Assembly (NCBI GenBank): GCA_020052095.1
Contig: JAGVPT010000219.1
Coordinates: forward strand, 1 to 54,416
Source: Bacteroidota bacterium
GTDB lineage: Bacteria; Bacteroidota; Ignavibacteria; UBA10030; UBA8401
Direction: 5' to 3'
DNA: 54,416 nucleotides
The notes under the pieces were generated by a model. It was not told the origin of the DNA, searched no databases, and saw nothing but the letters and a program-made list of their open reading frames with translations. Below, piece after piece: positions 3,963-53,110 of the stretch. A program made the translations under genes and the position numbers. Numbering within the stretch: the stretch's first letter is position 1; every line of letters begins with the position of its first letter.

Positions 3963-4014
3963 GCGTGTTACCCGTTTGTTGCCCCACTGTTAAATCAAAA
4001 AATGTCAAAAAAAG

Positions 4015-4078
4015 TGCCACGCACTTTGCTGTACGTGGCACAAAGAAAGCGAGGACTCCACTATTTCAGTGGAGTCCA
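4015..4078. terminator. Two hairpins between convergent genes (probable bidirectional terminators)
   Basis: GTGCCACG (4015-4022) pairs with CGTGGCAC (4035-4042). GGACTCCACT (4054-4063) pairs with AGTGGAGTCC (4069-4078). They lie between the stop codons of the mltD-like gene (+) and the 1201-aa gene (-), with A/T runs on both sides. Confidence 0.5.
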
Positions 4079-4088
4079 TTAACGGTTC

Positions 4089-7807: not shown

Positions 7808-10606
7808 TTATTTCAATAACATCATCTTCTTGATTTGTGAGAAGCTTCCCGCGCTCAAGCGATACAAGTAGACACCTGAGGCAACCTTATAGCCCTTAGC
7901 ATCGACGGCATTCCATGTTATGGTGTACCGTCCGGCGTTTTGCGCCGTTGCGACAAGCGTAGTGACTTCACGACCTGTGATGTCGTACACCTTCAGATCC
8001 ACGAAAGCGTTCTGAGGCAATTGGTACTCAATTGTCGTCGACGGGTTGAACGGGTTCGGATAATTCTGGAGCAAGTCGTATGTGGTCGGAATGTCTGAGA
8101 CCGTACCACCGACGCTTGTTACCGAATTAACCTTCGTCTCATTCAGTGAAACGTCCTGCAATTGAACGGAGATGTTCCCCGACGACTGCAACACCTCGGC
8201 CTCCACGGCAAGAATCTGTCCGCCGGCAACGAGGGCTTCAGCACTCGCCATCGCGATCAGAACCGAGCCGTCCTGAATGTTCGATTCGACGGCAAAGTCC
8301 TTTGTCAGGTTCGTGGTAATTACATTTCGAATCTTTAACGCTGTTGAATTATAGAGTAATTTCATTTCGGCTGAACGAAGACCGGCGAGGTTTTGGGGGA
8401 TGGAGATCGGGATCATCACGATCTGTCCGGCATTGCCACTTGCGGATGCAAGAATAATTGATAACGGTGCATCGCTCTTGCCGTCGGTATTCTGCAGCGG
8501 CGGCAACGATTGTTTCCATGGAAGATATGGAACCCTGCCCACTACATTCGCCAATATTAATCCTGCGTCAAACGCGTTCACCGCGAGTCCAGTGTGCGAG
8601 AGATTCACATCACCCGTAACGACCTGAACAGGTGTGAATTGGCGCAGCCTCACGACAAACTGTAAGATCCAAGAAGCGTCGAGGGCAGAAACCGTTCCAT
8701 TTCCCGTCACATCTCCCGTGCCGGCGTCAATTCCGACCTGACCGTTTGGATTGTAGCTTACGTCATCAACGTTTATCGACCAGGGCTTCGAACTGTCCGG
8801 AGCGAAGAACCAAACGGCATCAATAGAGACGCGGGGGCCTTTAATCTTTGGGCTTCCCGACGTAACTACCCAAGGCGTCCAGTGCGTGGAATCGCCTATA
8901 TTCCATTGATACAGATGCCACGAACCATCGCCCACAACAGGCAACCTCACCGACCGTTTGGTCGCAGGATCGCTCGGGTCATCGAGCCCGATTGCCACCA
9001 TTGTATGGGGGGGAGCGTTTCTCGTCCGCATCCAATATCCTACCCATCCCACTGCGCCGAGACTGTCGTTATTTGCGGTCGAACCGGTCCCGGAAAGCAA
9101 TCTCACTTCCCAGGGATTGACGGAGGCCGGATCATCCAGCAACGTCACTTCCAGCGAGCCTGTGCCGTTGAATGCCGCCAGAGGTGTTTGTTTCGCAGAG
9201 GACGAAGAACTGATGCCAACTGTGGAACCCGAAAAAGTCGGAACCTGATTGAAATGGCCGACGCCGGCGTCGAAATTATCCATAACTTTTACTGCGGTGC
9301 TCAACACCATGAAATCTCCGCTTTTCGTGGTCCACTTCGTGGGCGGCGTCGAAGGCGGGATGTACATGCGCACCCATTCACCACTTGGGTTGGCATAATA
9401 GATGTTGCCCAGAATGTCAATTCCGATGGAGTGGCTGCCGGAGGTGCTCGTCGCAGGCGTAAAGAGCTTTGTCGTAGTCTTGCCCGGAAAATCGAGCTTG
9501 AAGACTCCGCCATTTGCACCCCTAACTCTGCAGTAGATAGCGTCATCAGCGTTCGAAGCGAGATTGGCTCCGTGGAATAGATTGAGATGCGTAACGTTAT
9601 CCGGAAGCACAAGGGTATCCAGTTTGACGAATGTCGGCGATAATCGAACTACCTTCGTATAGCTGGCGGAAGACGTTCCAAACGAAATGTAAACGTATCC
9701 GGAGTCGTCCAACGCGACATCGCGCGTGTAGCCAGCCGCACCTGTACCCGTTGTGTCAACGACGAAGACGGTATCAATTGTCCCCGCAGGAAGTCTTCGA
9801 AGAACCACTCGGCCGTTTGCCATGAACAGTGTCGGGTCGCCGGCTCCATAAGCAAAGATGCCTTTCGGATCTTTGAATTTGCTGGTATCTTTGTGTGTCT
9901 GAATAAGGACGGTGTCACGATAAACGAAGATCGATTGCAGCGCCGAGCTCGTTACGTATTGTTGTCCATTGCGCGCGATGCTGATAAACCACGGGTCAAA
10001 ATCCGACGTCCCTTGAGGAAACAAAAATCGCGAGTATTCGGTGGCGAACGATCCGTTCGCGCGGGCCATGATCATACGCGCATAGCCGTAAGATGTGGTC
10101 GATTCAGTCATAATCAGATTACCAAACATCGGGCTCCCGGGGTCCTGGACCACTTCGATATCCCTGCTGGAAAGTCCTCCGCCGGAGAGAAGATACACAG
10201 AGTTTTGCCATGCCTGCACCCATCCAGTCGTCGAGTTGCCCGTGTCCGACGTGAAGACTTCGAAGGAATACCGGCCGGGAGAAACGAATTTCCCGGTGTT
10301 GTCCTTTCCATCCCATGAAACGCTATACTGTCCGGGGGCTACATTCGTAACGGTGTCGAGTGCCCGGACTCTTGCTCCTCCGGGGCCTCCGGCAAGTACC
10401 CATACCTCCACAGAATCTGCCCTACCGTTAAGGGCGAACCAAAGCCTCGCACCAGTTCCGTCGACAAAAGAACCATCGAATGATTTGGTCGAATCGGGGT
10501 CGCTGACACGCAAGCTCGAAGCATAGGTTCCCGCCTGCATCTCCGTGTTCAACCCGATCAGCAAAACCATGATTGCTGCATAGGTCAATACCAAATACTG
10601 TTTCAT
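7808..10606 (-). CDS. Secreted multidomain protein: FlgD-Ig-like, propeller-like, jelly-roll-like, dockerin-like, cohesin-like and T9SS C-terminal sorting domains
   Basis: 932-aa ORF with a signal peptide. FlgD-Ig-like YSVSWDGKDNTGKFVSPGRYSFEV. Two-segment dockerin-like GDVTGNGTVSALDASWILQFVV / GDVNLSHTGLAVNAFDAGLILANVVG (aa 629-690, nt 8537-8722). Cohesin-like aa 714-835 (nt 8102-8467). C-terminal sorting domain NYPNPFNPSTTIEY ... GVYLYRLSAGSFSQIKKMMLLK. Confidence 0.75.
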   Translation of the reverse strand: MKQYLVLTYAAIMVLLIGLNTEMQAGTYASSLRVSDPDSTKSFDGSFVDGTGARLWFALNGRADSVEVWVLAGGPGGARVRALDTVTNVAPGQYSVSWDGKDNTGKFVSPGRYSFEVFTSDTGNSTTGWVQAWQNSVYLLSGGGLSSRDIEVVQDPGSPMFGNLIMTESTTSYGYARMIMARANGSFATEYSRFLFPQGTSDFDPWFISIARNGQQYVTSSALQSIFVYRDTVLIQTHKDTSKFKDPKGIFAYGAGDPTLFMANGRVVLRRLPAGTIDTVFVVDTTGTGAAGYTRDVALDDSGYVYISFGTSSASYTKVVRLSPTFVKLDTLVLPDNVTHLNLFHGANLASNADDAIYCRVRGANGGVFKLDFPGKTTTKLFTPATSTSGSHSIGIDILGNIYYANPSGEWVRMYIPPSTPPTKWTTKSGDFMVLSTAVKVMDNFDAGVGHFNQVPTFSGSTVGISSSSSAKQTPLAAFNGTGSLEVTLLDDPASVNPWEVRLLSGTGSTANNDSLGAVGWVGYWMRTRNAPPHTMVAIGLDDPSDPATKRSVRLPVVGDGSWHLYQWNIGDSTHWTPWVVTSGSPKIKGPRVSIDAVWFFAPDSSKPWSINVDDVSYNPNGQVGIDAGTGDVTGNGTVSALDASWILQFVVRLRQFTPVQVVTGDVNLSHTGLAVNAFDAGLILANVVGRVPYLPWKQSLPPLQNTDGKSDAPLSIILASASGNAGQIVMIPISIPQNLAGLRSAEMKLLYNSTALKIRNVITTNLTKDFAVESNIQDGSVLIAMASAEALVAGGQILAVEAEVLQSSGNISVQLQDVSLNETKVNSVTSVGGTVSDIPTTYDLLQNYPNPFNPSTTIEYQLPQNAFVDLKVYDITGREVTTLVATAQNAGRYTITWNAVDAKGYKVASGVYLYRLSAGSFSQIKKMMLLK

Positions 10607-36050: not shown

Positions 36051-36195
36051 AATCTATATCAAAAAGGTGCTAATCAATCCTTCTGAGCCTATGGCTCAGC
36101 AGGGCGAATGGCAGAGCATTTCTAAGAAATCTTCTAGCGTTAGTAGATGATCTTCGACCGGACGTCTCTCGGTCTCAATGCGATTCGAAAATCGT

Positions 36196-36228
36196 GCGCC
36201 AGTCCGAAGGACCCCTTCGGACTGGCGC
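36196..36228 (+). other. Perfect 15-bp intercistronic hairpin
   Basis: GCGCCAGTCCGAAGG, loop ACC, then CCTTCGGACTGGCGC. It lies between the URO-D-family gene and the sugar-binding protein gene. Confidence 0.7.
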
Positions 36229-36277
36229 ATCAGCCTGTGGCAGAGCAATCGTAAATCGTAACTCAAAGGGCACTTCG

Positions 36278-37207
36278 ATGACCAGACCTCTTTCACTCCT
36301 TCTCACGCTGGCTATTTGTTCTCTTCTCATCCCCTCATGCACGAAAAAAGAAGAAGGGGGGCATGCGAAGATCATTGGCGTGACGCTTTTAACGCGGGGT
36401 CATGTTTTTTATAAAGACCTTGAGGAGGGACTTCGCACCGAGGCGGTGAAAAATAACTATGAGCTTATCGTTACCGCCGGCGAATTCGACCTTGGGAAAC
36501 AAATAGCACAAATAGAGGACTTCGTCGCGCGGAAGGTCGACGCGATTATCGTGTGTCCGGTCGATTCCAAAGGAATTGGCAGTGGGATAAGAAAAGCGAA
36601 TCAAGCAAAAATCCCGGTGTTCACCGCCGACATCGCAGCTTTTGAAGGCGACGTCGTTAGTCACATTGCATCAGATAATGAGCTCGGGGGAAAACGAGCA
36701 GCAGAGTATCTTGCGAAAGTATTGCACGGCAAAGGTAAGATCGCGATCATCAATCAGCCGACAGTCACTTCCGTACTCGATCGCATAGCCGGATTCAAGA
36801 AGGAGCTCGAGAAATTCCCCGATATAACGGTTGTAGCCGACGTCAATGGCGACGGCGTTCGGGACCGCTCGTTACAGGTGTCGTCGGATATTCTGCAAGC
36901 GCATCCCGACTTAGATGGCATTTTTGGAATTAATGATGATTCGGCTCTTGGAGCGCTCGACGCCGTCCAACAATTTAAACGGAAAAATGTAGTCATTATC
37001 GGCTACGACGCGACACCGCCTGCCGTCGCCGCAATTCTTAGAAATACTTCCTTGAAAGCCGACGTGGTCCAGTACCCAAAGAAAATCGGCTCATCAACTA
37101 TATCCGCCATCAAAGATTATTTTGCCGGCTACTCTGTAGAGAAGCGTTACGCCGTCGAAGTCGGAATCGTAGACAGGGAAGCTCTCCGGAAAATACCGGT
37201 CCAATAA
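36278..37207 (+). CDS. Sugar ABC transporter substrate-binding protein (CUT2, RbsB-like), probable lipoprotein
   Basis: I place the start at ATG 36278 (MTRPLSLLLTLAICSLLIPSC). The periplasmic-binding-protein/LacI-type fold pattern is present (IGVTLLTRGHVFY ... VDAIIVCPVDS ... IPVFTADI). Confidence 0.75.
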   Translation: MTRPLSLLLTLAICSLLIPSCTKKEEGGHAKIIGVTLLTRGHVFYKDLEEGLRTEAVKNNYELIVTAGEFDLGKQIAQIEDFVARKVDAIIVCPVDSKGIGSGIRKANQAKIPVFTADIAAFEGDVVSHIASDNELGGKRAAEYLAKVLHGKGKIAIINQPTVTSVLDRIAGFKKELEKFPDITVVADVNGDGVRDRSLQVSSDILQAHPDLDGIFGINDDSALGALDAVQQFKRKNVVIIGYDATPPAVAAILRNTSLKADVVQYPKKIGSSTISAIKDYFAGYSVEKRYAVEVGIVDREALRKIPVQ

Positions 37208-40172: not shown

Positions 40173-40613
40173 ATGGCACAAACATATTACAAGATTTGGA
40201 TTCATCTCATTTGGGCAACGAAGGAACGTCGGCCTGTCATGCAAAAAGAAACTCGCGAAAAGATTCTTCACCATATACGGGAAACGGCGATGAAAGAAGG
40301 TTACCATATCGATACGATTAACGGAGTTGCCGACCATCTTCATTGCCTGATTTCACTGAGTCCAAGATTTTCGATCAGCGAAGTGATGAATAAATTGAAA
40401 GGCGAGTCCTCTCATTGGATAAATTCTGAAAAGATCACACGAGGTCGATTTGCATGGCAAGGCGGGTTTGCCGCGTTCTCGGTCAGCGCATCGCAGGTAC
40501 ATAGAGTGCGAAGGTACATTCTTAACCAGGAAAAGCATCACCAGAAAACCTCGTTCGCTGAGGAGGTGGACAGATTTGTGAAATTGTACAACGCAGATGG
40601 AGAAAGGGCATGA
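40173..40613 (+). CDS. REP-associated tyrosine transposase (RAYT; IS200/IS605-like Y1 HUH transposase)
   Basis: 146-aa ORF. N-terminus YYKIWIHLIWATKERRPVM, HUH motif DHLHCLI, and catalytic Tyr motif YILNQ (YxxxQ). Confidence 0.85.
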   Translation: MAQTYYKIWIHLIWATKERRPVMQKETREKILHHIRETAMKEGYHIDTINGVADHLHCLISLSPRFSISEVMNKLKGESSHWINSEKITRGRFAWQGGFAAFSVSASQVHRVRRYILNQEKHHQKTSFAEEVDRFVKLYNADGERA

Positions 40614-40893
40614 ATGCCCTTTTGGGTACCAGCGTTGTTTCCGTCCCCGGCCCTGAAGGGCCAGGCAAAGGAAGGCTCATGCAAGGAAGTATCGGCCCAT
40701 AGAAATTTCGGGCCAATAAAGGACCGGCCCAAGAAGCGGTTCGGCCAAGAAACCGTTTCGTTTATTGTTAGAAAACGATTAGCCCGACCATCTAGGGTCG
40801 GGCCATGAATGTGCAGTCGAATACAACATTGGCCCAACCGTTCATGGTTGGGCAACCGAGGAGCAAGCCCATTTTCCATATGCCCTTCAGGGC
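40606..40893. repeat. REP-containing module, right of the RAYT gene (direct repeat of the left module; 2 REP palindromes)
   Basis: GGGCATGAATGCCCTTTTGGGTACCAGCG ... CCGGCCCTGAAGGGCC ... GGCCAAGAAACCGTTTCGTTTATTGTTAGAAAACGATTAGCCCGACC is collinear with 39680-39900. REPs at 40782-40803 and 40831-40853. It ends with TTTCCATATGCCCTTCAGGGC. Confidence 0.85.
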
Positions 40894-44357: not shown

Positions 44358-44432
44358 GGGGTCGTAGCTCAGTTTGGTTAGAGCGCCTGCCTGTCACGCA
44401 GGAAGTCGCGAGTTCGAGTCTCGTCGGCCCCG
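44358..44432 (+). tRNA. tRNA-Asp (anticodon GTC)
   Basis: Cloverleaf read by eye. Acceptor GGGGTCG/CGGCCCC (one G-U pair). D-arm GCTC-AGTTTGGTTA-GAGC. Anticodon arm CCTGC-CTGTCAC-GCAGG. T-arm GCGAG-TTCGAGT-CTCGT. Discriminator G. CCA is not encoded. Confidence 0.9.
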
Positions 44433-44437
44433 CTTCC

Positions 44438-44556
44438 AAAACGACACGACTTAGCGAGCCCGAATGGGCGCAGCTAAGCCGTTTGTCGTTTTGAGAACCC
44501 CGACGAAGCGACTTGTCCGCCGCAGTGCAACGGAGGCGGAAGCGTAGTCGGGGTTG
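44438..44556 (+). other. Two long hairpins immediately 3' of tRNA-Asp
   Basis: Hairpin A: AAAACGACA..CTTAGC / GCTAAG..TGTCGTTTT (44438-44492). Hairpin B: AACCCCGAC ... GTCGGGGTT (44497-44556) with an inner CCGCC/GGCGG stem. Confidence 0.7.
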
Positions 44557-44862
44557 GCACCGAATAGAACATTTTTCCAGAATGCCCAAAGAAATTTGGG
44601 CATCTCTGTTTGCGGCGTGTTGACATTCCCAGTTGAATTTCCCATGTTCCCGTACACGCGTTTACCCCGGATGCAACGGGTGACCTGCCCCCACAGATAA
44701 TCCAATGAGGTATATTGGAAGCATTTAAAAGAGTAGTGGTCGAATGAGCAGCAAGAAGCGTCTTGCCGAAGTGCTTATCAAGAACCTGCAGAGGGCAAGG
44801 TGCCGCTGACCGTGAGAGAAGATCCCTCAGAGGCAGTTGTCAGCCCTTGAAGAAGTAAAAGC

Positions 44863-45795
44863 ATGAACCATCACCGCAGCGCTATGTCCAGGATATTATC
44901 TGCGTTCGTCATTACCACCCTTTTTCATTTATCCCTTCTCTCTTTCAACATTCCCAAGGGAGATGTGCGACAAGTGAGCGGGAATGGACTGAGTAAACAT
45001 GACTCGCTTGACGGACGCAAGATCCTCTTTGGGTATGCCAATGATGACTTTCTCCTTGAAACTCAGGTTAATAGTCTTCTTGGGACAAAACTTTTTCCTT
45101 CACGCGATGATCACATCTCCGGAACTCTTTTTCTTTTCGCACTCTTTTGTGAGAATGGGAAGTCGTATAGGGCTGATATCGTTTATCACACATTGACCGA
45201 CCGCGCAACGCTTTTTCGGGCTGATCTCCTCGCGCTTGGCGTCACACTTGAAAAAGAAGACCGCCCAATATTGTACGAATTGGGCCTTGGAGCTCATCTT
45301 CTGGGCAATCTCGGCGGAGAGTCTCTCCAAAATAACTTTCATAGAATCTTTGGATACAGAAAAGTATTTCTCAACTATGATAACAGTCTTCGGGGAGGGA
45401 TAAGACTTTCCGGCAGAGCAGAATATCTATTGCGATGCCTGAATGATCAGATCCAAGTGCTACCCTTTTCCTCCGTTCTCTATTCGACTAACTCATTGCT
45501 AAACTCGTTTTGCTTCGGTGTGTCTGACTATGTGCGAGTTGGCAACTTTCACTTCGATGGTACTGTCGGTTATGCTTCCCGATACAAGATTGCCCCTCCG
45601 CTCGAGCATATTTTTGGCAGTGCAATGTATTATGGGATCTTGGGAGAGACCAATCTCGGTGCAAACTGCAGTTTGGCCTGTTGGATCACGAAAGGCCAGT
45701 TCGGGCTAGAAAACGAATATCACTTTGGAATGAATATAGGATGGATAATGGGTGCTGTTCGTCCAACGAGATTGAAAGATGTAGCCTTTCCATAG
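44863..45795 (+). CDS. Hypothetical secreted/outer-membrane protein (weak LpxR/DUF2219-like pattern)
   Basis: 310-aa ORF with a hydrophobic N-terminus. It has an alternating beta-strand-like sequence, ends in an aromatic residue (DVAFP), and YANDDF ... DDHISGT loosely recalls the lipid A deacylase family N-terminus. Confidence 0.4.
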   Translation: MNHHRSAMSRILSAFVITTLFHLSLLSFNIPKGDVRQVSGNGLSKHDSLDGRKILFGYANDDFLLETQVNSLLGTKLFPSRDDHISGTLFLFALFCENGKSYRADIVYHTLTDRATLFRADLLALGVTLEKEDRPILYELGLGAHLLGNLGGESLQNNFHRIFGYRKVFLNYDNSLRGGIRLSGRAEYLLRCLNDQIQVLPFSSVLYSTNSLLNSFCFGVSDYVRVGNFHFDGTVGYASRYKIAPPLEHIFGSAMYYGILGETNLGANCSLACWITKGQFGLENEYHFGMNIGWIMGAVRPTRLKDVAFP

Positions 45796-46008
45796 GTCCC
45801 ATCGCTGACATTGACATTCCCCTCTGAATTTCGAATATTGCCGAGCAAACATTGACCCCAGCTCCAACGGGGACTCCTATGTGCGGCGAATAAATAGTGC
45901 AAGGAACTTAGAAGCCTCTGTTGGCGAAAGCCGGCAGAGGCTTCTTCATTGTAACCAGAGGGCCTCATCATCCCGGTCAAAGATGGAACTACTGCACTGA
46001 GGCGCAAA

Positions 46009-47139
46009 ATGAAGAACAAATGCATTTCCAAATTAGGGAGCAATGTTCTCCTCACCGTTATGCTTATCGAAGCTATCCTCAATGCTGGTTGTGAGAAAAG
46101 CACGGAACCGCAGAAGCCGCCGGACACAACAAAACCGGCCGCACTCTGTACTCTGTTATCAGTAGAGCAGAATGGACCAACGCTCAATCTTAGCTGCGGT
46201 AATTACACTCTTAAGAGAACAAACATCAAGTACGACGAGTACAATGAAATGAAGGCCTTCGATTTTATATATACATGTCCGGGCTCATCAGAGACATATT
46301 CCGGTAACATTTACGGCATCACTTGGTCCTGGATGATGGTTATTGCCTTCGATGCGATGATAAATGGAGAGTCCTGTCTTTATCCACCGGGCCGATTACC
46401 TGCTGTGGGTTGGGTAAGACAGTCCGCAGGAACATACAATTGCCTGCGTGCGGTATCGCTCGTCGGCGCCAATGTGGAGATCGTCGTAGGAACGCAGGGA
46501 ATAATACGGCGAACAACTGATGGTGGAGAAACTTGGACAAGTCAATTGAGTGGGACGACGAGTATTCTCGAAGAAGTGTGTTTTACCGACGCCAACACTG
46601 GAGTAGTTGTGGGATGGGGGGGGACCATACTCCGCACCACAGTTGGCGGGACAACTTGGTTGGGTCAATCAAGTGGGACTACAAATATTCTGTACAGTGT
46701 CTTTTTCACCGATGCCAACACAGGCACTGCGGTAGGCCAAGGTGGGAAAATACTCCGCACGACGAACGGCGGGGCAACATGGACGAATCAATCGAGTGGG
46801 ACAACGATATGGCTCGGGGCCGTTTGTTTCACGGACGCCAACACAGGCACTGTGGTGGGAGAGAATGGCACAATACTCCGCACGACGAACGGTGGGGCAG
46901 CATGGGCGAATCAATCGAGTGGAACGCCGCTATTCCTTAATGGCGTTTTTTTCGTGAATGCCAGCACCGGTGCTGTCGTAGGGACTGACGGTACAATACT
47001 CCGTACAACAGATGGCGGAACAACTTGGACTAGCCAGTCAAGTGGTATATGGGAACCTCTATCCGATGTTTGGTTCAGTGGTATTAACGCGGGTACGGCC
47101 GTGGGAAGCGGTGGAATTATTCTCCACAAGACGCAGTAG
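46009..47139 (+). CDS. BNR/Ycf48-like beta-propeller lipoprotein
   Basis: 376-aa ORF with lipobox LNAGC. Five consecutive ~41-aa repeats of ILRTT(N/D)GG(A/T)TW(T)NQSSGTT ... F(T)DANTGT(A/V)VG. Confidence 0.75.
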   Translation: MKNKCISKLGSNVLLTVMLIEAILNAGCEKSTEPQKPPDTTKPAALCTLLSVEQNGPTLNLSCGNYTLKRTNIKYDEYNEMKAFDFIYTCPGSSETYSGNIYGITWSWMMVIAFDAMINGESCLYPPGRLPAVGWVRQSAGTYNCLRAVSLVGANVEIVVGTQGIIRRTTDGGETWTSQLSGTTSILEEVCFTDANTGVVVGWGGTILRTTVGGTTWLGQSSGTTNILYSVFFTDANTGTAVGQGGKILRTTNGGATWTNQSSGTTIWLGAVCFTDANTGTVVGENGTILRTTNGGAAWANQSSGTPLFLNGVFFVNASTGAVVGTDGTILRTTDGGTTWTSQSSGIWEPLSDVWFSGINAGTAVGSGGIILHKTQ

Positions 47140-47441
47140 ACGTAGATTGGGAGTGTTCCAGAGAGTGCATCAAAGGGTACGACGTGGCCTGGCGTTATTG
47201 TCACGCCATACATGTCCAGTGGTGCCTCCGCCGGAAGGCTGCTTCGCGCAGCGGGTATCCCAGTGTATGGTATCTCAGGAATGTTTACGGACATGGATGA
47301 GGTTCGCCCCCACGGGAAAGATGAACGCCTTTGTCTGAAGGAATTCTACAAGGGGGTCGAGTTCACTTATAGATTCATTAATGCTCTGATTTCCGGTTCA
47401 TAAACACTCGAGCTTATGACATCTGTTGATGTAACAAATCG

Positions 47442-47523
47442 GGTAGAATAATGGCGGGCATTTGGCACAATCAGACATGTCCGTCATTGTCTTTCAACCT
47501 GGAATGAAGGAACAACAGGGTTC
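47442..47523 (+). ncRNA. Conserved ~85-nt noncoding element, copy 1 (candidate small RNA; family unknown)
   Basis: Collinear with 52748-52836: GGTAGA..AATA(A)TGGCGGRCATTYGGYACAWTCAGRMATGTCCGTCWTTGTCTTTCA..GGAAT.AAGGAAC.ACAGGGTTC. An upstream conserved CTGTTGAKG box precedes both copies. Confidence 0.4.
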
Positions 47524-47555
47524 TGCAAGTCCCCCGTTCGCCCCGCAAGTTTGAT

Positions 47556-47799
47556 GAAGTCGTCCCGACCAGTCGGGAAGTCTCGTCGGCCCCGCTAGTT
47601 TGATGAAGTCGTCCCGACTAGTCGGGAAGTCTCGTTTATCCGCCATCTTTTTGGCGGATCAGCCCCACAAGCATTAAGAAGAAGCCGTCCATTTGGGATG
47701 GCTTCGCTTTTTTATGGGAGCTGATCGTGCGGGAAGTCGTCCCGACCTATGATCGGGAAGTCTCGTTTACCCGCCATCTTATTGGCGGGTCGGCCCCGC
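47556..47799 (+). repeat. Cluster of three tRNA-Asp-3'-derived hairpin repeats (copies 1-3)
   Basis: Copies at 47556-47595, 47605-47668 and 47733-47799. The core is GAAGTCG-[TCCCGAC..GTCGGGA hairpin]-AGTCTCG-([CCGCCA..TGGCGG hairpin])-TCGGCCCCGC. Removing the hairpins leaves the tRNA-Asp 3' sequence GAAGTCG..AGTCTCGTCGGCCCCGC. Confidence 0.85.
47681..47714 (+). terminator. Rho-independent terminator inside the repeat cluster
   Basis: GAAGCCGTCC, loop ATTTG, then GGATGGCTTC, followed by GCTTTTTTA. Confidence 0.65.
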
Positions 47800-47990
47800 A
47801 AAAACAAATCAATCTCGCCATTGTTCCCTCCCGCAAGATCACCAAGACCAGCCTTTTTTAAAATAATTTTTAGCAGACTGTTAGCAATCTGTGCTGGGCA
47901 GATCCCACGGTTGTAGTATCAACAAACCTCAGACGAGATTTGATAATTTCATTCGGAGCTCCGGTACCCGGTCTTAAGGTGAATGAACCC

Positions 47991-49136
47991 CTACTTCCCG
48001 GCATCAACGAATAGGGTCAAATACTCGTGGAACGTAAACATCCTGTTTCGCTTTCCGCCAGTCGTCTCTTTCAGGACCCCAAGCTTAACGAAGTCCCGGA
48101 TGAACACGTTTGCGGTCGCAGGGGTTACATTCAACATCACTCCAACGTCGGCGGCGGTGACCCGTGGCGACTTATACAAATGAGTAATTAATTGCTGCGC
48201 CCGTGGAAATTTCGATCCCAGTGTGATTAAACGGTGTGACTCGATATCTTCTCTCAGCGCAAGGATACTCTTAAACGTTGCGATTCCTTGCTTTGATGTC
48301 TCTGTTACGGCAACGAGAAAAAATCTGATCCACTGCAACAGGTCATTGGCAGTTCTTGCTCTTGTGAGATTGTCGTAGTACACGGACTTATGTTTTTCAA
48401 AGTAGGACGAAAGATACAATATGGGCTTCGACAGGATGTTGTTACTAACAAGGTATAACGTGATTAGAAGCCGGCCAAGCCTTCCGTTTCCATCGAGGAA
48501 CGGATGGATAGCTTCAAACTGGTAATGCGCGATCGCAATCCTTATTAGATCGGGCAACTGGATCTTATCGTTGTGGAGGAAGTTCTCCAGGTCACTCATG
48601 AGTCCGGAGACTTCGGTGTGCTGAGGGGGGATGAAAACGGCGTCCTTGATCGTTGCTCCTCCGATCCAGCTTTGGCTTTTCCTGTATTCACCGGGCAATT
48701 TTGCCTTTCCACGTACACCGCTCATCAGGATCTGATGGGTTTCGTTTAGAAGCCGGGTAGAGATGGGGACATCCTTGAGCCTTTTGATAGCATGGTTCAT
48801 CGCCCTGATGTAGTTCTGAACCTCTTGCCAGTCGTCTCTCTTCTCAACACCGACATCCGCTTTCTTCATTACCACCTCTTCCATCTCTGTTCTTGTTCCT
48901 TCAATCCGGCTTGAGGTGGTTGCCTCCTTTACCACATGCATGCGAATGAAAATGTCGATATCCGGAACGTGCGAGGAGAACGCATTGAGTTCTCCCAGTT
49001 TGAGATTTGCTTCGGCGAGAAGGGAATTGACCATCGTATCCGACCAGGTCCACTCGGTATTGATTTTGGTTGGAGTGAAACTCTTGTACTGGTATTGTTG
49101 GGTATATGTGCCCGCTTTGAAGTTCTCGAGAGTCAC
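47991..49136 (-). CDS. Fic family protein (class II auto-inhibited AMPylase-type) with a C-terminal winged-helix domain
   Basis: 381-aa ORF. Fic motif HPFLDGNGRLGR. N-terminal inhibitory motif SSRIEG ((S/T)xxxE(G/N)). C-terminal wHTH-like LITHLYKSPRVTAADVGVMLNVTPATANVFIRDFVKLGVL. Confidence 0.85.
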   Translation of the reverse strand: MTLENFKAGTYTQQYQYKSFTPTKINTEWTWSDTMVNSLLAEANLKLGELNAFSSHVPDIDIFIRMHVVKEATTSSRIEGTRTEMEEVVMKKADVGVEKRDDWQEVQNYIRAMNHAIKRLKDVPISTRLLNETHQILMSGVRGKAKLPGEYRKSQSWIGGATIKDAVFIPPQHTEVSGLMSDLENFLHNDKIQLPDLIRIAIAHYQFEAIHPFLDGNGRLGRLLITLYLVSNNILSKPILYLSSYFEKHKSVYYDNLTRARTANDLLQWIRFFLVAVTETSKQGIATFKSILALREDIESHRLITLGSKFPRAQQLITHLYKSPRVTAADVGVMLNVTPATANVFIRDFVKLGVLKETTGGKRNRMFTFHEYLTLFVDAGK

Positions 49137-49152
49137 GTGTGTGTTATCCTGA

Positions 49153-49219
49153 CTAAAATATGGATTTCCTTATTTTAGGTAATGAGCATAAACTAAAATA
49201 AGAATTTTCTTGTTTTAGT
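49153..49219. promoter_or_regulatory. Two AT-rich inverted repeats just upstream of the Fic start codon (candidate operators)
   Basis: CTAAAATA (49153-49160) / TATTTTAG (49171-49178). ACTAAAATAAGAA (49192-49204) / TTCTTGTTTTAGT (49207-49219). Both share the CTAAAA core. Confidence 0.45.
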
Positions 49220-49482
49220 CAAGCAAAAAGTAGGAAATAGGAGATGATTCTGGCAAGCGTCGCAGATTCAGTCGCGCAGTGAGTAAGAGATGTTCGACAT
49301 GTAACAAATATGACAAATAATGCATATATGACATCGGAAACGGTCGTTCGAATTACAAATCAGGGAAATCCCAGTTCTAGCCATTGTGAAAATCCTACCT
49401 TGTTGGCAGATTAGTTAGCACCCTTCCAATTAATGCACCCAACCTCCCGAATATGAGACGATACACCTGCGTGGCGACGCAG

Positions 49483-49540
49483 GAAGTCGTCCCGATCTAT
49501 GATCGGGAAGTCTCGGGTGCCCGCCATCTTTTTGGCGGGG
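49483..49540 (+). repeat. tRNA-Asp-derived hairpin repeat, copy 4 (a degenerate anticodon arm lies just upstream)
   Basis: CCTGCGTGGCGACGCAGGAAGTCG-TCCCGATCTATGATCGGGA-AGTCTCG-GGTGCCCGCCATCTTTTTGGCGGGG. The 13-nt ACGCAGGAAGTCG is identical to the tRNA. Confidence 0.85.
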
Positions 49541-49828
49541 AAAGAACATCCCCAGACTTCTTTATCGAATAGAATGCCTAAAGAAATTTGGGCATTTCTA
49601 TATTTGGCGTGATCGGGGCACTGCTTGATTCAGAAGTCGTGTTGACATTCCCTGAAACTAATCCCACATCTGCACAGACACATTGACCCAGCTAATCTCT
49701 ACAGCGATAATCTCTGCAGCGATTCATAAGTTGTTGCCTTCCAGTTTCCAATTTCCTACCTTGCTGATCAAAATCGCATAACAACAAGGAAAAGTTCTGA
49801 TTCCAACTTCACCCAAAGGAGGTGTCTT

Positions 49829-52654
49829 ATGAAGAACCGTTCGCTTCTCATGGTTTGTTTCTCAATTCTTCTGACGCTAATAACGATAAGTGAATCGGGA
49901 GCTCAGGAAAGGCGATTCAATCTCTCTGAAATGTTAGGCCCTGACACTGCTATCACAATCGGTTCACTCGATAATGGTCTCACCTTCTATATTAAAGAGA
50001 ATAAGAAGCCGGAGAAGCGTGCTGAACTGCGGCTGGTGGTGAACGCCGGTTCGGTGCTGGAGGACGATGATCAGCAGGGATTGGCCCACTTTGTTGAACA
50101 TATGGCTTTCAACGGCACAAAGAGTTTTCCCAAACAGGAGATCATCGACTTTCTCGAAAAGTATGGCGTCCGCTTCGGACCGCATCTGAACGCGTACACC
50201 AGCTTCGATCAAACGGTCTATATGCTGCAAGTGCCCACAGATTCACCCATGGTTGTGCAAAAGGGTTTCAAAATCCTTCAGGAATGGGCTAACGCCATAT
50301 CTTTTAACGAGAAGGAAATTGATAAGGAGCGGGGGGTTCTGGTTGAAGAGTGGAGACTTGGTCAGGGTGCCTATGAACGTATATCCAACAAACACTATCC
50401 GGTCATATTTCATCAATCTCAATATGCAAAACGCCTCCCGATTGGGAAAAAAGAAGTGCTCGATACTTCCTCATATGAATCGATTCGCCGTTTCTATCGC
50501 CAATGGTATCGGCCGAATCTGATGGCGGTTGTCGCCGTCGGCGATTTTAACAAATCCGAGATCGAGAAATTGATCAGGGACGATTTTACTGCACTAAGAA
50601 ATCCGGACTCAACAAGAGCACGTCCGAAATACACTTTGCCAGACCATCAGGTCTCTCTCGCCTCTGTCGCAACTGATCCTGAAATGAATTTTTCAACTGT
50701 TCAGGTTCTCTTTAAACGTAATCTTGAAGAACAAAAAAGTGTGGCTGCGCACCGCCGCTACCTCCTCAATCAAATTTATGACGGAATGCTCAACGCGCGA
50801 TTGACGGAACGCATGCGCCAATCAGACCCACCCTACGTTTTTGCCTACAGCGGAAACAACCGTTTTGTCGGTGAAAAAGAGGCGTATGTGCTCTATGTCG
50901 GCGTGAAGGATAAAGAGATTGCCAGGGGACTTGAAGCTATTCTCACCGAAGCATTCAAAGTAAAACAGCACGGATTCACTGCGACCGAATTGGAACGACA
51001 AAAGAAAGAGATTCTTCGAAACATTGAGCAGGCGTACCGGGAGCGGGACAAGACCGAATCACGTTCCTCCGCGGATGAATTTATTCGGAATTTTCTGCAA
51101 GATGAAGCGATCCCGGGGGTTGCTGTCGAACGAGATCTGTCCAACTACTTTGTTCCGAATGTTACACTTGCCGAAATCAACAGCCTGGCAGCTATCCGAT
51201 TAAACGATGGTAATCGTGTCGTGACCGTTTCCTCACCAAAGAAGGATGGGTTTGTTCCTCCGACAGAAAATGAAGTACTCAAAATATTGGAGGAAGCAAG
51301 TACCAAAAAAGTTGAGGCATACGTGGACAACATCATCACGAAACCTTTGATCGAGAAAAAACCGAAACCCGGCACGGTTGCCAAGACAAAAGAGATCAAG
51401 GAATATTCAATTACAGAATGGACACTTTCGAATGGGGCACGGGTCATTCTTAAGCCTACTGATTTCAAAAATGATGAAATCGTGTTTTCTGCCTATAGCC
51501 GGGGAGGAACATCATTGGCTTCAGACAAGGATTTTATCTCGGCAGCGAATGCAGCCGCAACAATCTCTGAAGGAGGCGTAGGGGAATTTGATGCCACAAC
51601 GCTGAGGAAGCTGCTTGCCGGAAAGATTGTGAGTGTCAACCCGGGTATTAGTGAATTAAGCGAGAACTTCTCAGGAAGCGCCTCTCCAGAAGATCTTGAA
51701 ACGCTTTTCCAGCTTGTTCACCTCTATTTTACCTCGCCGCGTAAAGATACTGCAGCCACACAAGCGTATCTTGCGAGACAAAAGGCGTTTGTCGAAAACA
51801 ACAGGCTGAGTCCGGAATCTGCATTCCGGGATACGTTCTATGTCACGACGTCACAGTACCACTTCCGTTCGCGGCCAATGACGGTGAAAATTCTTGATGA
51901 ATACAACTTTGATCGCGCTATCGCGTTTTATAAAGACCGGTACGCTGATGCAAGTGATTTCATCTTTTTCTTCATTGGAAATTTCGATCTTGTAAAAATG
52001 AAGCCGTTTGTAGAACAATATCTTGCCAGCCTGCCAAATCTGAAACGAAAAGAGTCCTGGCGAGATGTGAATCGTATTTCACCAAAGGGCGTGATTGAAA
52101 AGGAAGTTCGAAAGGGAATAGATCCAAAGAGCTATGTGTTGATGTCCTTTACCGGATCCTTTGAATGGAACCTCCAGAATCTATTTGATTTTCAGGCTAT
52201 GACCGAAGTGTTGGACATCAAATTAAGAGAAGTAATTCGAGAAGATAAGAGCGGTACGTATGGAGTTGATGTCAGCGGTTCGCCGTCATTCTTCCCGCGC
52301 AAGGAATATTCGATCACTATATGGTTCGGATGTGCACCGGAGCGGGTCAAAGAGTTGACCCAGGCTGTGTTGCAACAGATCGATTCGATCAAGCTGAAGC
52401 AACCCGAACAGATCTACATGGATAAAGTCAAGGAGATGACCAGAAGGGAACTGCAAGTTAATAAAAGAGAAAACCGTTGGTGGTTATCAACCCTGAGAAG
52501 GTTCTATGCAAATGGAGAAGATTTACCGCCATTGTCTCAGGTTGAAAAGATGATTGAGAATCTTTCCGGAACAGCCATCCAGACGGCAGTCTCACGCTAT
52601 TTCAATATGAAAAACTATGTCCGTGTAGTTCTTTTCCCGGAAAAAAAGGAATAA
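49829..52654 (+). CDS. M16 (pitrilysin/insulinase) family zinc peptidase, two-halves-in-one polypeptide
   Basis: 941-aa ORF with a signal peptide. It carries the inverted zinc motif HxxEH (GLAHFVEHMAFNGT). Confidence 0.85.
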   Translation: MKNRSLLMVCFSILLTLITISESGAQERRFNLSEMLGPDTAITIGSLDNGLTFYIKENKKPEKRAELRLVVNAGSVLEDDDQQGLAHFVEHMAFNGTKSFPKQEIIDFLEKYGVRFGPHLNAYTSFDQTVYMLQVPTDSPMVVQKGFKILQEWANAISFNEKEIDKERGVLVEEWRLGQGAYERISNKHYPVIFHQSQYAKRLPIGKKEVLDTSSYESIRRFYRQWYRPNLMAVVAVGDFNKSEIEKLIRDDFTALRNPDSTRARPKYTLPDHQVSLASVATDPEMNFSTVQVLFKRNLEEQKSVAAHRRYLLNQIYDGMLNARLTERMRQSDPPYVFAYSGNNRFVGEKEAYVLYVGVKDKEIARGLEAILTEAFKVKQHGFTATELERQKKEILRNIEQAYRERDKTESRSSADEFIRNFLQDEAIPGVAVERDLSNYFVPNVTLAEINSLAAIRLNDGNRVVTVSSPKKDGFVPPTENEVLKILEEASTKKVEAYVDNIITKPLIEKKPKPGTVAKTKEIKEYSITEWTLSNGARVILKPTDFKNDEIVFSAYSRGGTSLASDKDFISAANAAATISEGGVGEFDATTLRKLLAGKIVSVNPGISELSENFSGSASPEDLETLFQLVHLYFTSPRKDTAATQAYLARQKAFVENNRLSPESAFRDTFYVTTSQYHFRSRPMTVKILDEYNFDRAIAFYKDRYADASDFIFFFIGNFDLVKMKPFVEQYLASLPNLKRKESWRDVNRISPKGVIEKEVRKGIDPKSYVLMSFTGSFEWNLQNLFDFQAMTEVLDIKLREVIREDKSGTYGVDVSGSPSFFPRKEYSITIWFGCAPERVKELTQAVLQQIDSIKLKQPEQIYMDKVKEMTRRELQVNKRENRWWLSTLRRFYANGEDLPPLSQVEKMIENLSGTAIQTAVSRYFNMKNYVRVVLFPEKKE

Positions 52655-52747
52655 GCTATTATTCTTTGACCGGTAAAATTTCTTATTGAACCCGGCGGTA
52701 AGCATTTCGATTGCTGGCAAGTGGCATGTATCTCATGCTGTTGAGGT

Positions 52748-52836
52748 GGTAGATGATAGGAATATGGCGGACATTCGGTACATTCAGGAATGTCCGTCTT
52801 TGTCTTTCACCGTGGAATCAAGGAACGACAGGGTTC
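52748..52836 (+). ncRNA. Conserved ~85-nt noncoding element, copy 2
   Basis: See copy 1. Perfect 8-bp stem GGACATTC/GAATGTCC here. In copy 1 the corresponding stem carries an A-to-G change on the 5' arm that keeps pairing as G-U. Confidence 0.4.
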
Positions 52837-53054
52837 GCTGAGACCAGTGCTGCGTCTCTGCGTTGATGATGTTCTTCAGGATGCGGAAGCCCAAAAAGCC
52901 AAGTGCTATCAAAAGTGTTTATCGTTAAGTTGATTCACAACTCACAGTTTTTATCACCGAGGCGAGTGGTTACCAGTTCGGTTACTGCGAGATGTTTTCT
53001 TACAGTATTTGTTTTCCGAAGACTCTGAATCAGACGAAAATTAAGGACTAGGAT

Positions 53055-53110
53055 CGCCTGTCACCCAGGAAGTCGTCCCGAATAGTCGGGAAGTCTGGTT
53101 TATCCGCCGC
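53055..53110 (+). repeat. tRNA-Asp-derived hairpin repeat, copy 5 (retains the anticodon loop CTGTCAC)
   Basis: GCCTGTCACCCAGGAAGTCG matches the tRNA GCCTGTCACGCAGGAAGTCG at 19 of 20 positions. It is followed by the TCCCGAATAGTCGGGA hairpin and AGTCTGGTTTATCCGCCGC. Confidence 0.8.

Follow-up and report, generated by a model that had tools for sequence, protein, structure and literature searches.

INTRODUCTION

Among described systems, that of the phage T4/T6 nuclease SegB is one of the closest to the elements reported here. SegB is a free-standing homing endonuclease of the GIY-YIG type whose gene is part of the tRNA gene cluster, and the conserved core of its recognition site is the TΨC stem-loop motif (PMC2330249). 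In T6, SegB nuclease activity together with homologous recombination results in tandem segmental amplification of the tRNA/segB region (PMC13096335). Partial tRNA genes are known to arise from integration, as attR sites, and from CRISPR activity (PMC9897764). Here we analyze a stretch of 54,416 nucleotides from a Bacteroidota bacterium of the class Ignavibacteria (contig JAGVPT010000219.1 of assembly GCA_020052095.1, forward strand), referred to as the window. Downstream of its tRNA-Asp gene the window carries five pseudo copies of the 3' part of that gene, each with a segment of the T arm replaced by a hairpin. We report that these copies belong to a widespread family of modules, the complete members of which carry a small GIY-YIG nuclease gene. 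A preliminary description of the window, made from its letters without database searches, had drawn attention to the copies.

The nuclease of the complete modules resembles SLX1 and the UPF0213 proteins. SLX1 acts with SLX4 in repair, and we know of no link between SLX1 and tRNA genes. Slx1-Slx4 processes branched DNA, according to the titles of the PDB entries 6seh and 6sei. For bacterial UPF0213 proteins, a literature search revealed neither a function nor a genomic context of the kind described below, and in a survey of GIY-YIG proteins from 2006 the sole hint at tRNA was a fusion of an Slx1-like domain to TrmH (PMC1564403).

RESULTS

Hairpin-Substituted Copies of the tRNA-Asp 3' Part in the Window

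The sole tRNA gene of the window is a tRNA-Asp(GTC) gene located at 44358-44433 on the + strand (ARAGORN; Rfam tRNA model, 68.8 bits). It is the anchor and the sequence source of the pseudo copies. The sequence GAAGTCGTCCCGA was found to have exactly five matches in the window, all on the + strand (47556, 47605, 47733, 49483, and 53069), and TCGGGAAGTCTCG was found at positions matching these five sites. When aligned to the tRNA, all five copies retain GAAGTCG, which represents the variable loop and the first base of the T-stem, and AGTCTCG (AGTCTGG in copy 5), which represents the end of the T-loop and the 3' strand of the T-stem. The acceptor 3' strand is also retained in copies 1-3. In every copy the 8 nt CGAGTTCG were swapped for TCCCGA-loop-TCGGGA, and this hairpin is confined to the five copies within the window. 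The derivation of five + strand elements from the 3' part of tRNA-Asp, and the replacement of the T-stem/loop segment by a palindrome, were thereby found to be as first described.

The similarity to tRNA-Asp persisted when the hairpin was masked. The pattern GAAGTCG-N5-25-AGTCTSG matched the tRNA and the five copies only, which corresponds to 6 matches vs 0.05 expected, and none of 100 shuffles reached 6 matches. Likewise, TCRGCCCCRC matched only the tRNA and copies 1-3 (4 vs 0.29 expected). The similarity thus does not fall to chance level without the hairpins.

Copy 1 (47547-47596) carries GAAGTCG, the hairpin at 47563-47578, and AGTCTCGTCGGCCCCGC, and is without a second hairpin; it has AGTCTCGTCGGCCCCGCT with 18/18 identity (repeat family D11). 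It was detected by the covariance model R1, described below, at 59.2 bits (E 4.7e-12). In copy 2 (47600-47668; R1 35.6 bits) the first hairpin is located at 47612-47627 and the second at 47638-47659, and the acceptor strand is degenerate (TCAGCCCCAC). Just 3' of copy 2 a terminator scan identified an intrinsic-terminator-like hairpin with a T-run at 47681-47715 on the + strand (10-bp stem, tail GCTTTTTTAT), which is where terminators are found in the modules of the family described below. Copy 3 (47724-47799; R1 38.9 bits) has hairpin 1 at 47740-47758, hairpin 2 at 47770-47789 and an intact TCGGCCCCGC. Copy 4 (49466-49540; R1 41.2 bits) begins with the anticodon-arm-like stem CCTGCG-TGGCGA-CGCAGG at 49466-49483, followed by hairpin 1 at 49490-49508 and hairpin 2 at 49520-49539, and its acceptor strand is gone. 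Copy 5 (53056-53109; R1 38.6 bits; repeat family D10) comprises the anticodon loop and stem, where it carries GCCTGTCACCCAGGAAGTCG with 19/20 identity to the tRNA, and hairpin 1 at 53076-53091. The second hairpin, CCGCCA-TCTTWT-TGGCGG, is found in copies 2, 3, and 4, and in copy 5 its 5' arm alone is left. The second hairpins, the remnant in copy 5 and the anticodon-like parts of copies 4 and 5 all agree with the preliminary description, which had overlooked an additional remnant, here termed copy 0. Copy 0 (47535-47546, + strand) consists of the acceptor-strand remnant CGTTCGCCCCGC preceded by the T-arm-like GGGTTCTGCAAGTCCC (repeat family D4; sequence reading).

Copies 0, 1, and 2 make up a 49-bp tandem repeat that is opened by copy 0. 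Copies 3 and 4 constitute a 61-nt direct repeat with 90% identity (repeat family D2), and are the left and right repeats flanking a Fic/SoFic-type defence gene at 47991-49136 on the - strand (Pfam Fic_N and Fic; PADLOC SoFic, E 8.4e-118). The SoFic gene between the two copies looks like a small defence islet. The distance of the copies from tRNA-Asp is 3.1-8.7 kb downstream on the same strand, compared to typically less than 1.5 kb in the family.

None of the copies was called as a tRNA by ARAGORN or by Rfam RF00005, even at E up to 5. The copies are without a 5' half, and the 5' strand of the T-stem and the loop are replaced; as first described, none is a functional tRNA. Compared to shuffled sequences, copies 1 and 5 did not fold better (z-scores of -0.5 and -0.6), and copy 2 together with its terminator had a z-score of -5.5. 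The elements of the window are most likely non-functional relics that record the insertion history downstream of tRNA-Asp.

Two other repeats were observed close to the tRNA-Asp gene and its copies. An 80-nt repeat with 83% identity precedes copy 0 (47444-47523) and copy 5 (52757-52836) by a short distance. Within it the sequence GGCGGRCAT...ATGTCCGTC forms a long hairpin, in which a G-U pair of one repeat copy is changed to A-U in the other, and the repeat was not found in the other loci examined. A 41-nt motif with the palindrome ATGCCCAAAGAAATTTGGGCAT is present at 44579-44619, 145 nt after the tRNA, and at 49571-49611, 30 nt after copy 4. The motif TTGACATTCCC follows both, directly at 44620 and about 35 nt downstream at 49645, and all three of its occurrences (44620, 45811, and 49645) are about 200 nt upstream of an open reading frame (ORF). 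The 41-nt palindrome motif and TTGACATTCCC may represent a shared promoter or operator. We also considered the 41-nt motif as evidence of a long direct repeat, which was rejected because the similarity is too short.

The Copies Belong to a Widespread Family

The covariance model R1 was trained on 38 sequences from outside the window. When applied to the 54 kb it detected exactly the five window copies (59, 41, 39, 39, and 36 bits; E 5e-12 to 1.5e-6) and the 3' half of the tRNA, and nothing else credible. Because R1, built from foreign loci, detects all five, the window copies are, as judged from sequence, members of a widespread family in low-GC bacteria of the Fibrobacteres-Chlorobi-Bacteroidetes (FCB) type (Ignavibacteria/Bacteroidota-like), and the element is not confined to this one locus. 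R1 also had a weak match at 36524-36571 (20.5 bits, E 0.005) inside an ORF at 36194-37207; it is without the TCCCGA stem and is probably due to chance.

The members of the family were collected by pattern searches. Species-representative genomes were scanned for the hairpin with 4-5 flanking bases on each side, in the rarer AAGTCG variant. This resulted in four loci, labelled Ignavibacteriaceae, Bacteroidetes, Cloacimonadota, and Methanomassiliicoccaceae, a number that underestimates the taxonomic breadth at the genome level since most members have GGTCG and the AAGTCG pattern was too strict. A scan of metagenomes for the hairpin with its flanks matched at least 120 contigs. The counts given below, including those over 127 loci, hold among the matches listed. 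A tRNA-type 3' flank was present in 135 of the 179 exact matches listed, from at least 91 loci with a median GC content of 36%. The remaining matches are mostly chance matches in GC-rich coding DNA (median GC content of the loci 63%).

No match was found in viral contigs using the AGTCG variant, and the general pattern had one, locus L128, with a GIY-YIG gene, the hairpin and a terminator. The module is thus essentially chromosomal. Locus L001 (contig CAVYIY010000008.1, 678 kb, labelled Methanomassiliicoccaceae archaeon) was found to contain a hairpin pseudo-tRNA-Asp, a bacterial-type terminator and a tRNA-Asp gene. This occurrence could be a case of mis-binning or a real archaeal case.

The closest orthologs of the M16 peptidase of the source organism (55-62% identical), from metagenome-assembled genomes labelled Bacteroidota or Ignavibacteriales, showed no synteny with the window and no tRNA-Asp. 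Upstream of one of these orthologs, at 9740-9860 of locus L131, a cluster of GC-rich palindromes including GTCCCGATATATCGGGAC and GCCCCGACATAGTCGGGGC was observed away from any tRNA. Relatives thus contain stems of a similar kind as ordinary palindromes between genes.

Rfam 15 has no family for the module: tRNA was the only match, both in the window (gathering threshold, and E up to 5) and in 15 loci (gathering threshold). A full-text literature search gave no description of GIY-YIG-linked, hairpin-substituted pseudo-tRNAs. Both agree with the first impression that this is not a described element. The suggestion that it might be a dispersed, tRNA-derived miniature inverted-repeat transposable element or short interspersed element found no support in the window and the loci examined, where all known copies adjoin their cognate tRNA and neither terminal inverted repeats nor target-site duplications were seen.

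Complete Modules Carry a Small GIY-YIG Nuclease Gene

This link had been overlooked in the preliminary description; the window itself has no such gene. The canonical order of a complete module is an intact tRNA-Asp gene, usually a terminator, a GIY-YIG ORF of 80-90 aa, [CACGCAGGAGGTCG]-hairpin-[AGTCTCGTCGGCCCCGC], and a terminator. The start codon of the GIY-YIG ORF is located within a few nucleotides after the tRNA terminator. The hairpin was found at the 3' end of the small ORF in L002/L005, L004, L006, L007 and dozens of metagenome loci. Altogether 69 GIY-YIG ORFs were identified in 58 loci, and for at least 54 of the 69 the hairpin is no more than 60 nt from the 3' end of the ORF or overlaps it. 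The stop codon is located inside the hairpin in 27 of these. Where this is the case, the tail of the nuclease, ..(H)AGGRP(D/E), is the translation of the tRNA anticodon-stem/variable-loop sequence and the first arm of the hairpin. In-frame stops in the loops of copies 2-5 (SRPD*, SRPDL*, SRPE*) are the sole trace of the nuclease ORF in the window.

A tRNA gene on the same strand was found no more than 400 nt upstream of 43 GIY-YIG ORFs. Most were Asp-GTC, and Gly-GCC, Gly-CCC, and Val-TAC were also found. A terminator-like hairpin with a T-run was present within 95 nt of 57 of 116 modules compared to 22 of 400 random controls.

The association was also recovered from the protein side. The homolog P0012, which was picked by protein similarity only, is encoded in a locus of the same architecture (L134), with a full-length pseudo-tRNA carrying hairpins in the D- and T-positions. 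The more distant homolog P0013 (L137, 1-960) is encoded in tandem units of about 438 bp, and the T loop of its pseudo-tRNA, GGGTTC|GAATCCC, is broken by a different hairpin. From L137, disruption of the T loop seems to be general and untied to the TCCCGA sequence. The still more distant homolog P0014 (L136) is without tRNA context.

The ORFs contain the motifs GIY...YIG...R...H...E and match Pfam PF01541. The catalytic residues are kept in 58 ORFs, with Y5, Y16, G18, R26, H30, and E62 being invariant. A sequence search of the PDB identified the UPF0213 proteins BH0048 (1zg2, E 5.8e-9) and EF2693 (1ywl, E 6.5e-7), followed by SLX1. Foldseek with the predicted fold identified BH0048 (1zg2), Slx1 (6seh and 7cq3), the catalytic domain of I-TevI (1ln0), and the N-terminal domain of UvrC. 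The AlphaFold model had a mean predicted local distance difference test (pLDDT) score of 87.6, with the tRNA-encoded tail predicted to be disordered (residues 82-86, pLDDT <50). The nuclease scored far under the cutoff of the NCBIfam model for group I intron endonucleases, and defence-system and NCBIfam models gave no meaningful match. By sequence similarity and predicted fold, the nuclease is best assigned to the UPF0213/SLX1-like GIY-YIG clade and not to the Seg/I-TevI type with DNA-binding modules.

The Hairpin Replaces a Defined Segment of the tRNA and Is Under Structural Selection

In about 50 tRNA-Asp cases the flanks of the hairpin were mapped onto the neighbouring true tRNA gene. The tRNA sequence is kept to nucleotide 50/51 of the gene and resumes at nucleotide 59/60. 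All five window copies show the same arrangement with the hairpin in between, and in tRNA-Gly modules the equivalent 8 nt are replaced. Mapped to the standard numbering, the segment lost corresponds to canonical positions 50-57, that is the 5' strand of the T-stem and G53-T54-T55-C56. G53-T54-T55-C56 is the most conserved motif of tRNA genes.

TCCCGA...TCGGGA also replaces other arms. This was seen in pseudo-tRNAs, either full-length or limited to the 5' part, that are arrayed immediately upstream of the true gene. The 3' strand of the D-stem is replaced in L117, L127, L094, L098, L086, L028, and L134, and the anticodon arm in L048/L026, L074, and L120, in L074 within a four-copy tRNA-Val array. 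In L048 the 5' pseudo copies end after GTTCG and in L074 after GGTTC, in both cases within the T loop. As in window copies 2-4, a second hairpin is present between the 3' strand of the T-stem and the acceptor strand in L037, L089, and L017, although with other sequences.

The six core base pairs of the hairpin were set by the search and are uninformative on conservation, and the later pairs were free to vary. In hairpins with at least five inner bases the 7th pair was Watson-Crick in 49 of 51 cases, compared to a mean of 19 and a maximum of 32 in shuffled sequences, and the 8th pair in 21 of 22. In alignment A2 the 7th pair was UA in 11, AU in 8, GC in 6, and CG in 4 sequences, with double changes exceeding those of shuffled and slid controls. 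The hairpin stem covaries and is under structural selection. Because the length of the inner spacer or loop varies from 2 to 10 nt, it is the formation of a hairpin that is selected rather than a duplex site with fixed spacing. No G-T pair was found at the 7th position among the 51 cases, and the stem is the same on both strands. Selection on DNA and selection on RNA would both be compatible with these data.

Duplications, Tandem Units and Cargo

The direct repeat that contains the pseudo-tRNA 3' part has a length of 44 bp in L004 and of about 65 bp in L006, and runs past the end of the tRNA into the terminator or flank. This would be the outcome expected of a single crossover or of break repair in the 3' region of the tRNA. 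Tandem nuclease units were found in L083, L086, L098, L108, L117, and L124. Solo arrays free of the nuclease gene were found in L023, with several copies at a spacing of 105 bp, and in L054, with four copies at 83 bp. Loci L026 and L048 represent a deletion derivative in which only ..FDHAGGRPE*, the last codons of the ORF, is left before the hairpin. The full-length pseudo-tRNAs in L117, L094, and L127 bear the same T-position hairpin as the nuclease-linked copy, and look like tRNA duplicates converted from it.

Other genes were found between modules. In L075 the order is tRNA-Asp, module, GIY-YIG gene, module, followed at 2618-4944 by an AbiEii toxin/AbiEi antitoxin pair that is located on the opposite strand between two hairpin pseudo-tRNA-Asp modules. 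In L011 a tyrosine-integrase islet (integrase, HATPase, and DUF4325) has a hairpin module on either side, and the direct repeat around it exceeds 70 nt. The true prophage att site at tRNA-Asp in L005 (5902-5946) has a normal T arm.

Two observations on these loci are added. The repeat copies of L011 (1100-1200 vs 4180-4280) differ by an inversion of the terminator loop, cccCTCGCGggg vs cccGCGAGGggg, which resembles a flip-flop within the palindrome. In L006 an Rfam abiF RNA match above the gathering score (2523-2570, - strand, 41.3 bits) adjoins an AAA-ATPase/PDDEXK_9 gene; its distance from the cluster of pseudo-tRNAs is about 1.3 kb.

Other Features of the Window

A gene for a Y1 transposase of the repetitive extragenic palindrome (REP)-associated tyrosine transposase (RAYT) type is located at 40173-40613 (Pfam Y1_Tnp, E 4e-30) with blocks of REP-like palindromes on both sides. 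The block at 39678-39898 matches that at 40604-40855 with 84-91% identity, and the consensus is GCCCGACC-N6-GGTCGGGC. Four tandem 123-nt repeats at 46576-47067 in the ORF at 46009-47139 are BNR/Ycf48-like repeats (Pfam PSII_BNR). Type IX secretion system (T9SS) sorting domains are present in the source organism.

DISCUSSION

The modules resemble the SegB loci in that a GIY-YIG gene is embedded beside tRNA genes (PMC2330249; PMC13096335). The centre of the SegB site, the TΨC stem-loop (PMC2330249), is exactly the segment missing from the pseudo copies, and SegB amplification of a segment with tRNA and nuclease genes gives arrays that include truncated gene copies (PMC13096335). SegB is a phage enzyme with a DNA-binding region, whereas the nucleases described here are chromosomal catalytic domains of 80-90 aa from the SLX1/UPF0213 clade, and in contrast to Seg-type homing endonuclease loci they lack a C-terminal DNA-binding domain. 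Hairpin-substituted pseudo-tRNAs were not found in the excerpts of the SegB accounts (PMC2330249, PMC13096335). The likeness to SLX1/UPF0213 (BH0048, EF2693) includes both the sequence match to 1zg2 (E 5.8e-9) and the predicted-fold match to UPF0213 and Slx1.

It is rather likely, in our judgement, that a nuclease drove segmental duplication or the insertion of cassettes at tRNA-Asp, that the window copies are the relics and boundary repeats of these events, and that the TΨC motif was removed by the hairpin; the mechanism is one that we infer by analogy. By comparison with T4/T6 SegB, the nuclease would promote breakage of the adjacent tRNA gene at its TΨC region or close by. Recombinational repair would then produce a partial tRNA duplication on one or the other side, and the cassette would spread or amplify. 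A hairpin allele without the TΨC motif would neither be recut nor fold as a tRNA, and the hairpin would interrupt homology that could otherwise delete the cassette. Repeated modules might then act as boundaries where other cargo lands. The window would have lost its nuclease gene by deletion and received other DNA, so that orphans were left: the 49-bp tandem of copies 0-2, the SoFic repeats of copies 3 and 4, and copy 5 as a distal relic, with copies 2-4 bearing the extra inserted hairpin. From the exact loss of TΨC and the SegB precedent we infer that a nuclease-free allele would be cleaved at the tRNA TΨC region and that inheritance would favour the allele with the nuclease.

Several observations weigh against this. 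Neither a GIY-YIG gene nor a remnant of one was found at 44.4-53.3 kb of the window, using tblastn and a hidden Markov model (HMM) on ORFs of at least 15 aa (best E 0.5), and because of this it is family membership that links the window to the nuclease. Two weak GIY-YIG HMM matches (E 4-6) both fell within the 80-nt repeat at 47444/52757, and are neither independent nor significant. The nuclease is a bare catalytic domain, unlike SegB without a DNA-binding domain. The presumed target persists in the intact tRNA beside the nuclease, and the host would need to tolerate self-cleavage or in some way prevent it. Simple target-site destruction accounts neither for the use of one and the same TCCCGA stem across tRNA types nor for the D-arm and anticodon-arm hairpins and the extra hairpins before the acceptor strand. 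The metagenome sample was chosen by the hairpin pattern, so the invariance of the six core base pairs was imposed rather than observed. Finally, no pair of an empty and a filled site that would demonstrate mobility was found.

These gaps, namely the missing window nuclease, the kept tRNA target, the missing DNA-binding part and the reuse of the hairpin, leave room for a reading in which the hairpin is a recognition element. It is possible, although we would not expect it, that the hairpin is the working site of a tRNA-anchored cassette system. The minimal SLX1-like nuclease would recognise the TCCCGA hairpin, either extruded from DNA or within the 3' end of the nuclease transcript. The tRNA flanks, as homology or guide, would target breaks and recombination to the tRNA gene, and each cassette (nuclease, SoFic, AbiE) would end in a hairpin pseudo-tRNA within integron-like arrays downstream of tRNA-Asp. 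A preference for branched or stem-loop DNA, by analogy with Slx1, would give the conserved hairpin a rationale. Integron cassettes with attC sites also form arrays beside a fixed anchor, each ends in an imperfect, hairpin-capable palindrome, and their cargo includes defence and toxin-antitoxin genes. Here, unlike in integrons, the anchor is a tRNA gene and the hairpin is much shorter (a stem of 6-9 bp), without attC R/L boxes or extrahelical bases. No IntI was noticed in any locus, and no formal search with an attC model was made; the resemblance is one of architecture only.

Serial integration at tRNA-Asp had been put forward in the preliminary description, with REP-like hairpins colonising the att-site duplications later. 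In its present form this explanation regards the copies as attR-type core repeats left by tyrosine-integrase islands, with the hairpin being the attP/attB of one islet family. What stands of it is that boundary-like sequences are repeated, as seen for copies 3 and 4, which bracket a defence gene. As in attL/attR duplicates, a direct repeat of the tRNA 3' part bounds inserted DNA downstream of an intact tRNA, and partial tRNA genes are known products of integration (PMC9897764). The homology in att duplicates often starts from the anticodon loop or the T loop, and their repeats mark defence-gene islets; copy 5 and many modules likewise begin their tRNA homology at the anticodon loop, as does the true prophage att in L005. 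The integrase islet in L011 is flanked by two modules and a direct repeat of >70 nt, and in L002 and L005 a prophage integrase is located directly upstream of the GIY-YIG gene. However, att duplicates and integrase cores are contiguous copies of the tRNA, whereas every copy described here is interrupted at the same 8 nt, in place of which there is a conserved hairpin, and the true L005 att has its normal T arm. Most loci are without an integrase, unlike integrase islands, and the usual "cargo" is one tiny nuclease gene. A phmmer search with the L002 integrase, a single-sequence search of limited sensitivity, found an integrase only in L002, L005, and L011 of the 127 loci and none in the window, and Pfam revealed no integrase among the ORFs tested around the window copies. 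A loop of 2-10 nt does not match the fixed overlap region of a recombinase, and neither the D- and anticodon-position hairpins nor the close association of the module with the end of the GIY-YIG ORF is explained. We therefore consider an integrase origin unlikely. The later colonisation by REP-like hairpins did not hold, as the hairpin is found at the same coordinate in at least 91 loci. The REPs of the window (GCCCGACC-N6-GGTCGGGC) do share CCCGAC with hairpin 1 of copies 1-3, as had been pointed out, and like REPs and bacterial interspersed mosaic elements the hairpin is a short GC-rich palindrome; in the relative L131, GTCCCGATATATCGGGAC occurs among GC-rich palindromes in a context unrelated to tRNA. 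The shared motif is nevertheless a family-wide property of the hairpin and not a local acquisition. REPs are dispersed, intergenic and dependent on RAYT, whereas the hairpin has fixed coordinates in tRNA-derived sequence in loci without RAYT, none having been found in the 127 loci, where one sequence loosely fits the REP pattern. In addition, TCCCGAC is not enriched in the window outside the copies (10 vs 8.3 expected), the base of the stem differs (T...A vs G...C), and the inner bases vary across the family. A later spread of REP-like palindromes into old att remnants of tRNA-Asp, brought about by the RAYT at 40 kb, is very improbable, and we rejected a REP/RAYT origin because of the fixed tRNA coordinate, the missing RAYT and the lack of dispersal in the window.

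The module could also be primarily a functional RNA. It might belong to the nuclease mRNA as a 3'-untranslated region or operon element, or be a tRNA-like RNA (decoy, inhibitor or guide) with a hairpin that binds the nuclease, and the arrays would then parallel those of repeats in type III toxin-antitoxin systems. The covariation of the stem is compatible with this, and so are the location of the module between the tRNA promoter and the terminator, with no space for a promoter of its own before the GIY-YIG start, the stop codon within the loop, and the tandem arrays of 49-168-nt units beside a small nuclease gene. In L007 the tRNA-like flanks are near-identical to the tRNA while the adjoining terminator has diverged, and the prokaryotic fusion of an Slx1-like domain to the tRNA methylase TrmH (PMC1564403) points in the same direction. 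Against it, G-U is missing from the 7th pair in all 51 cases, and a strand-symmetric, perfect palindrome suits recognition of DNA equally well. There is no conserved structure outside the hairpin, copies 1 and 5 fold no better than shuffles, and the window copies are degenerate and without a partner gene. Altogether, a primary role as RNA appears quite unlikely to us. That the copies reflect chance similarity, or local scrambling and duplication without wider meaning, is of negligible probability. All five are found within 9 kb of the tRNA and copies 0-2 are a simple 49-bp tandem, but chance is excluded by the masked-pattern count (6 vs 0.05 expected), by detection with a foreign-built model at E 5e-12 to 1.5e-6, and by the same module being present in more than 90 other loci.

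The finding relates to two known types of locus, tRNA genes with an associated nuclease and boundary repeats made of tRNA fragments, to which it adds an unexplained conserved structural feature. Fragments of this type can mislead tRNA annotation, and tools that use direct repeats of tRNA fragments to define island boundaries. The modules flag a hot spot for defence genes, with SoFic in the window and AbiE in L075. If nuclease-driven duplication or insertion at tRNA-Asp is the correct interpretation, the family would be a widespread and apparently unnoticed chromosomal counterpart of the phage Seg-type associations between nuclease and tRNA genes, in which single arms of duplicated tRNA genes are precisely replaced by one conserved hairpin, a feature that was not found described in the literature search. 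It would also provide a concrete context for the orphan bacterial UPF0213/SLX1-like nucleases, and a testable hypothesis on substrate finding by a bare GIY-YIG catalytic domain (about 85 aa), via a hairpin or a branched structure.

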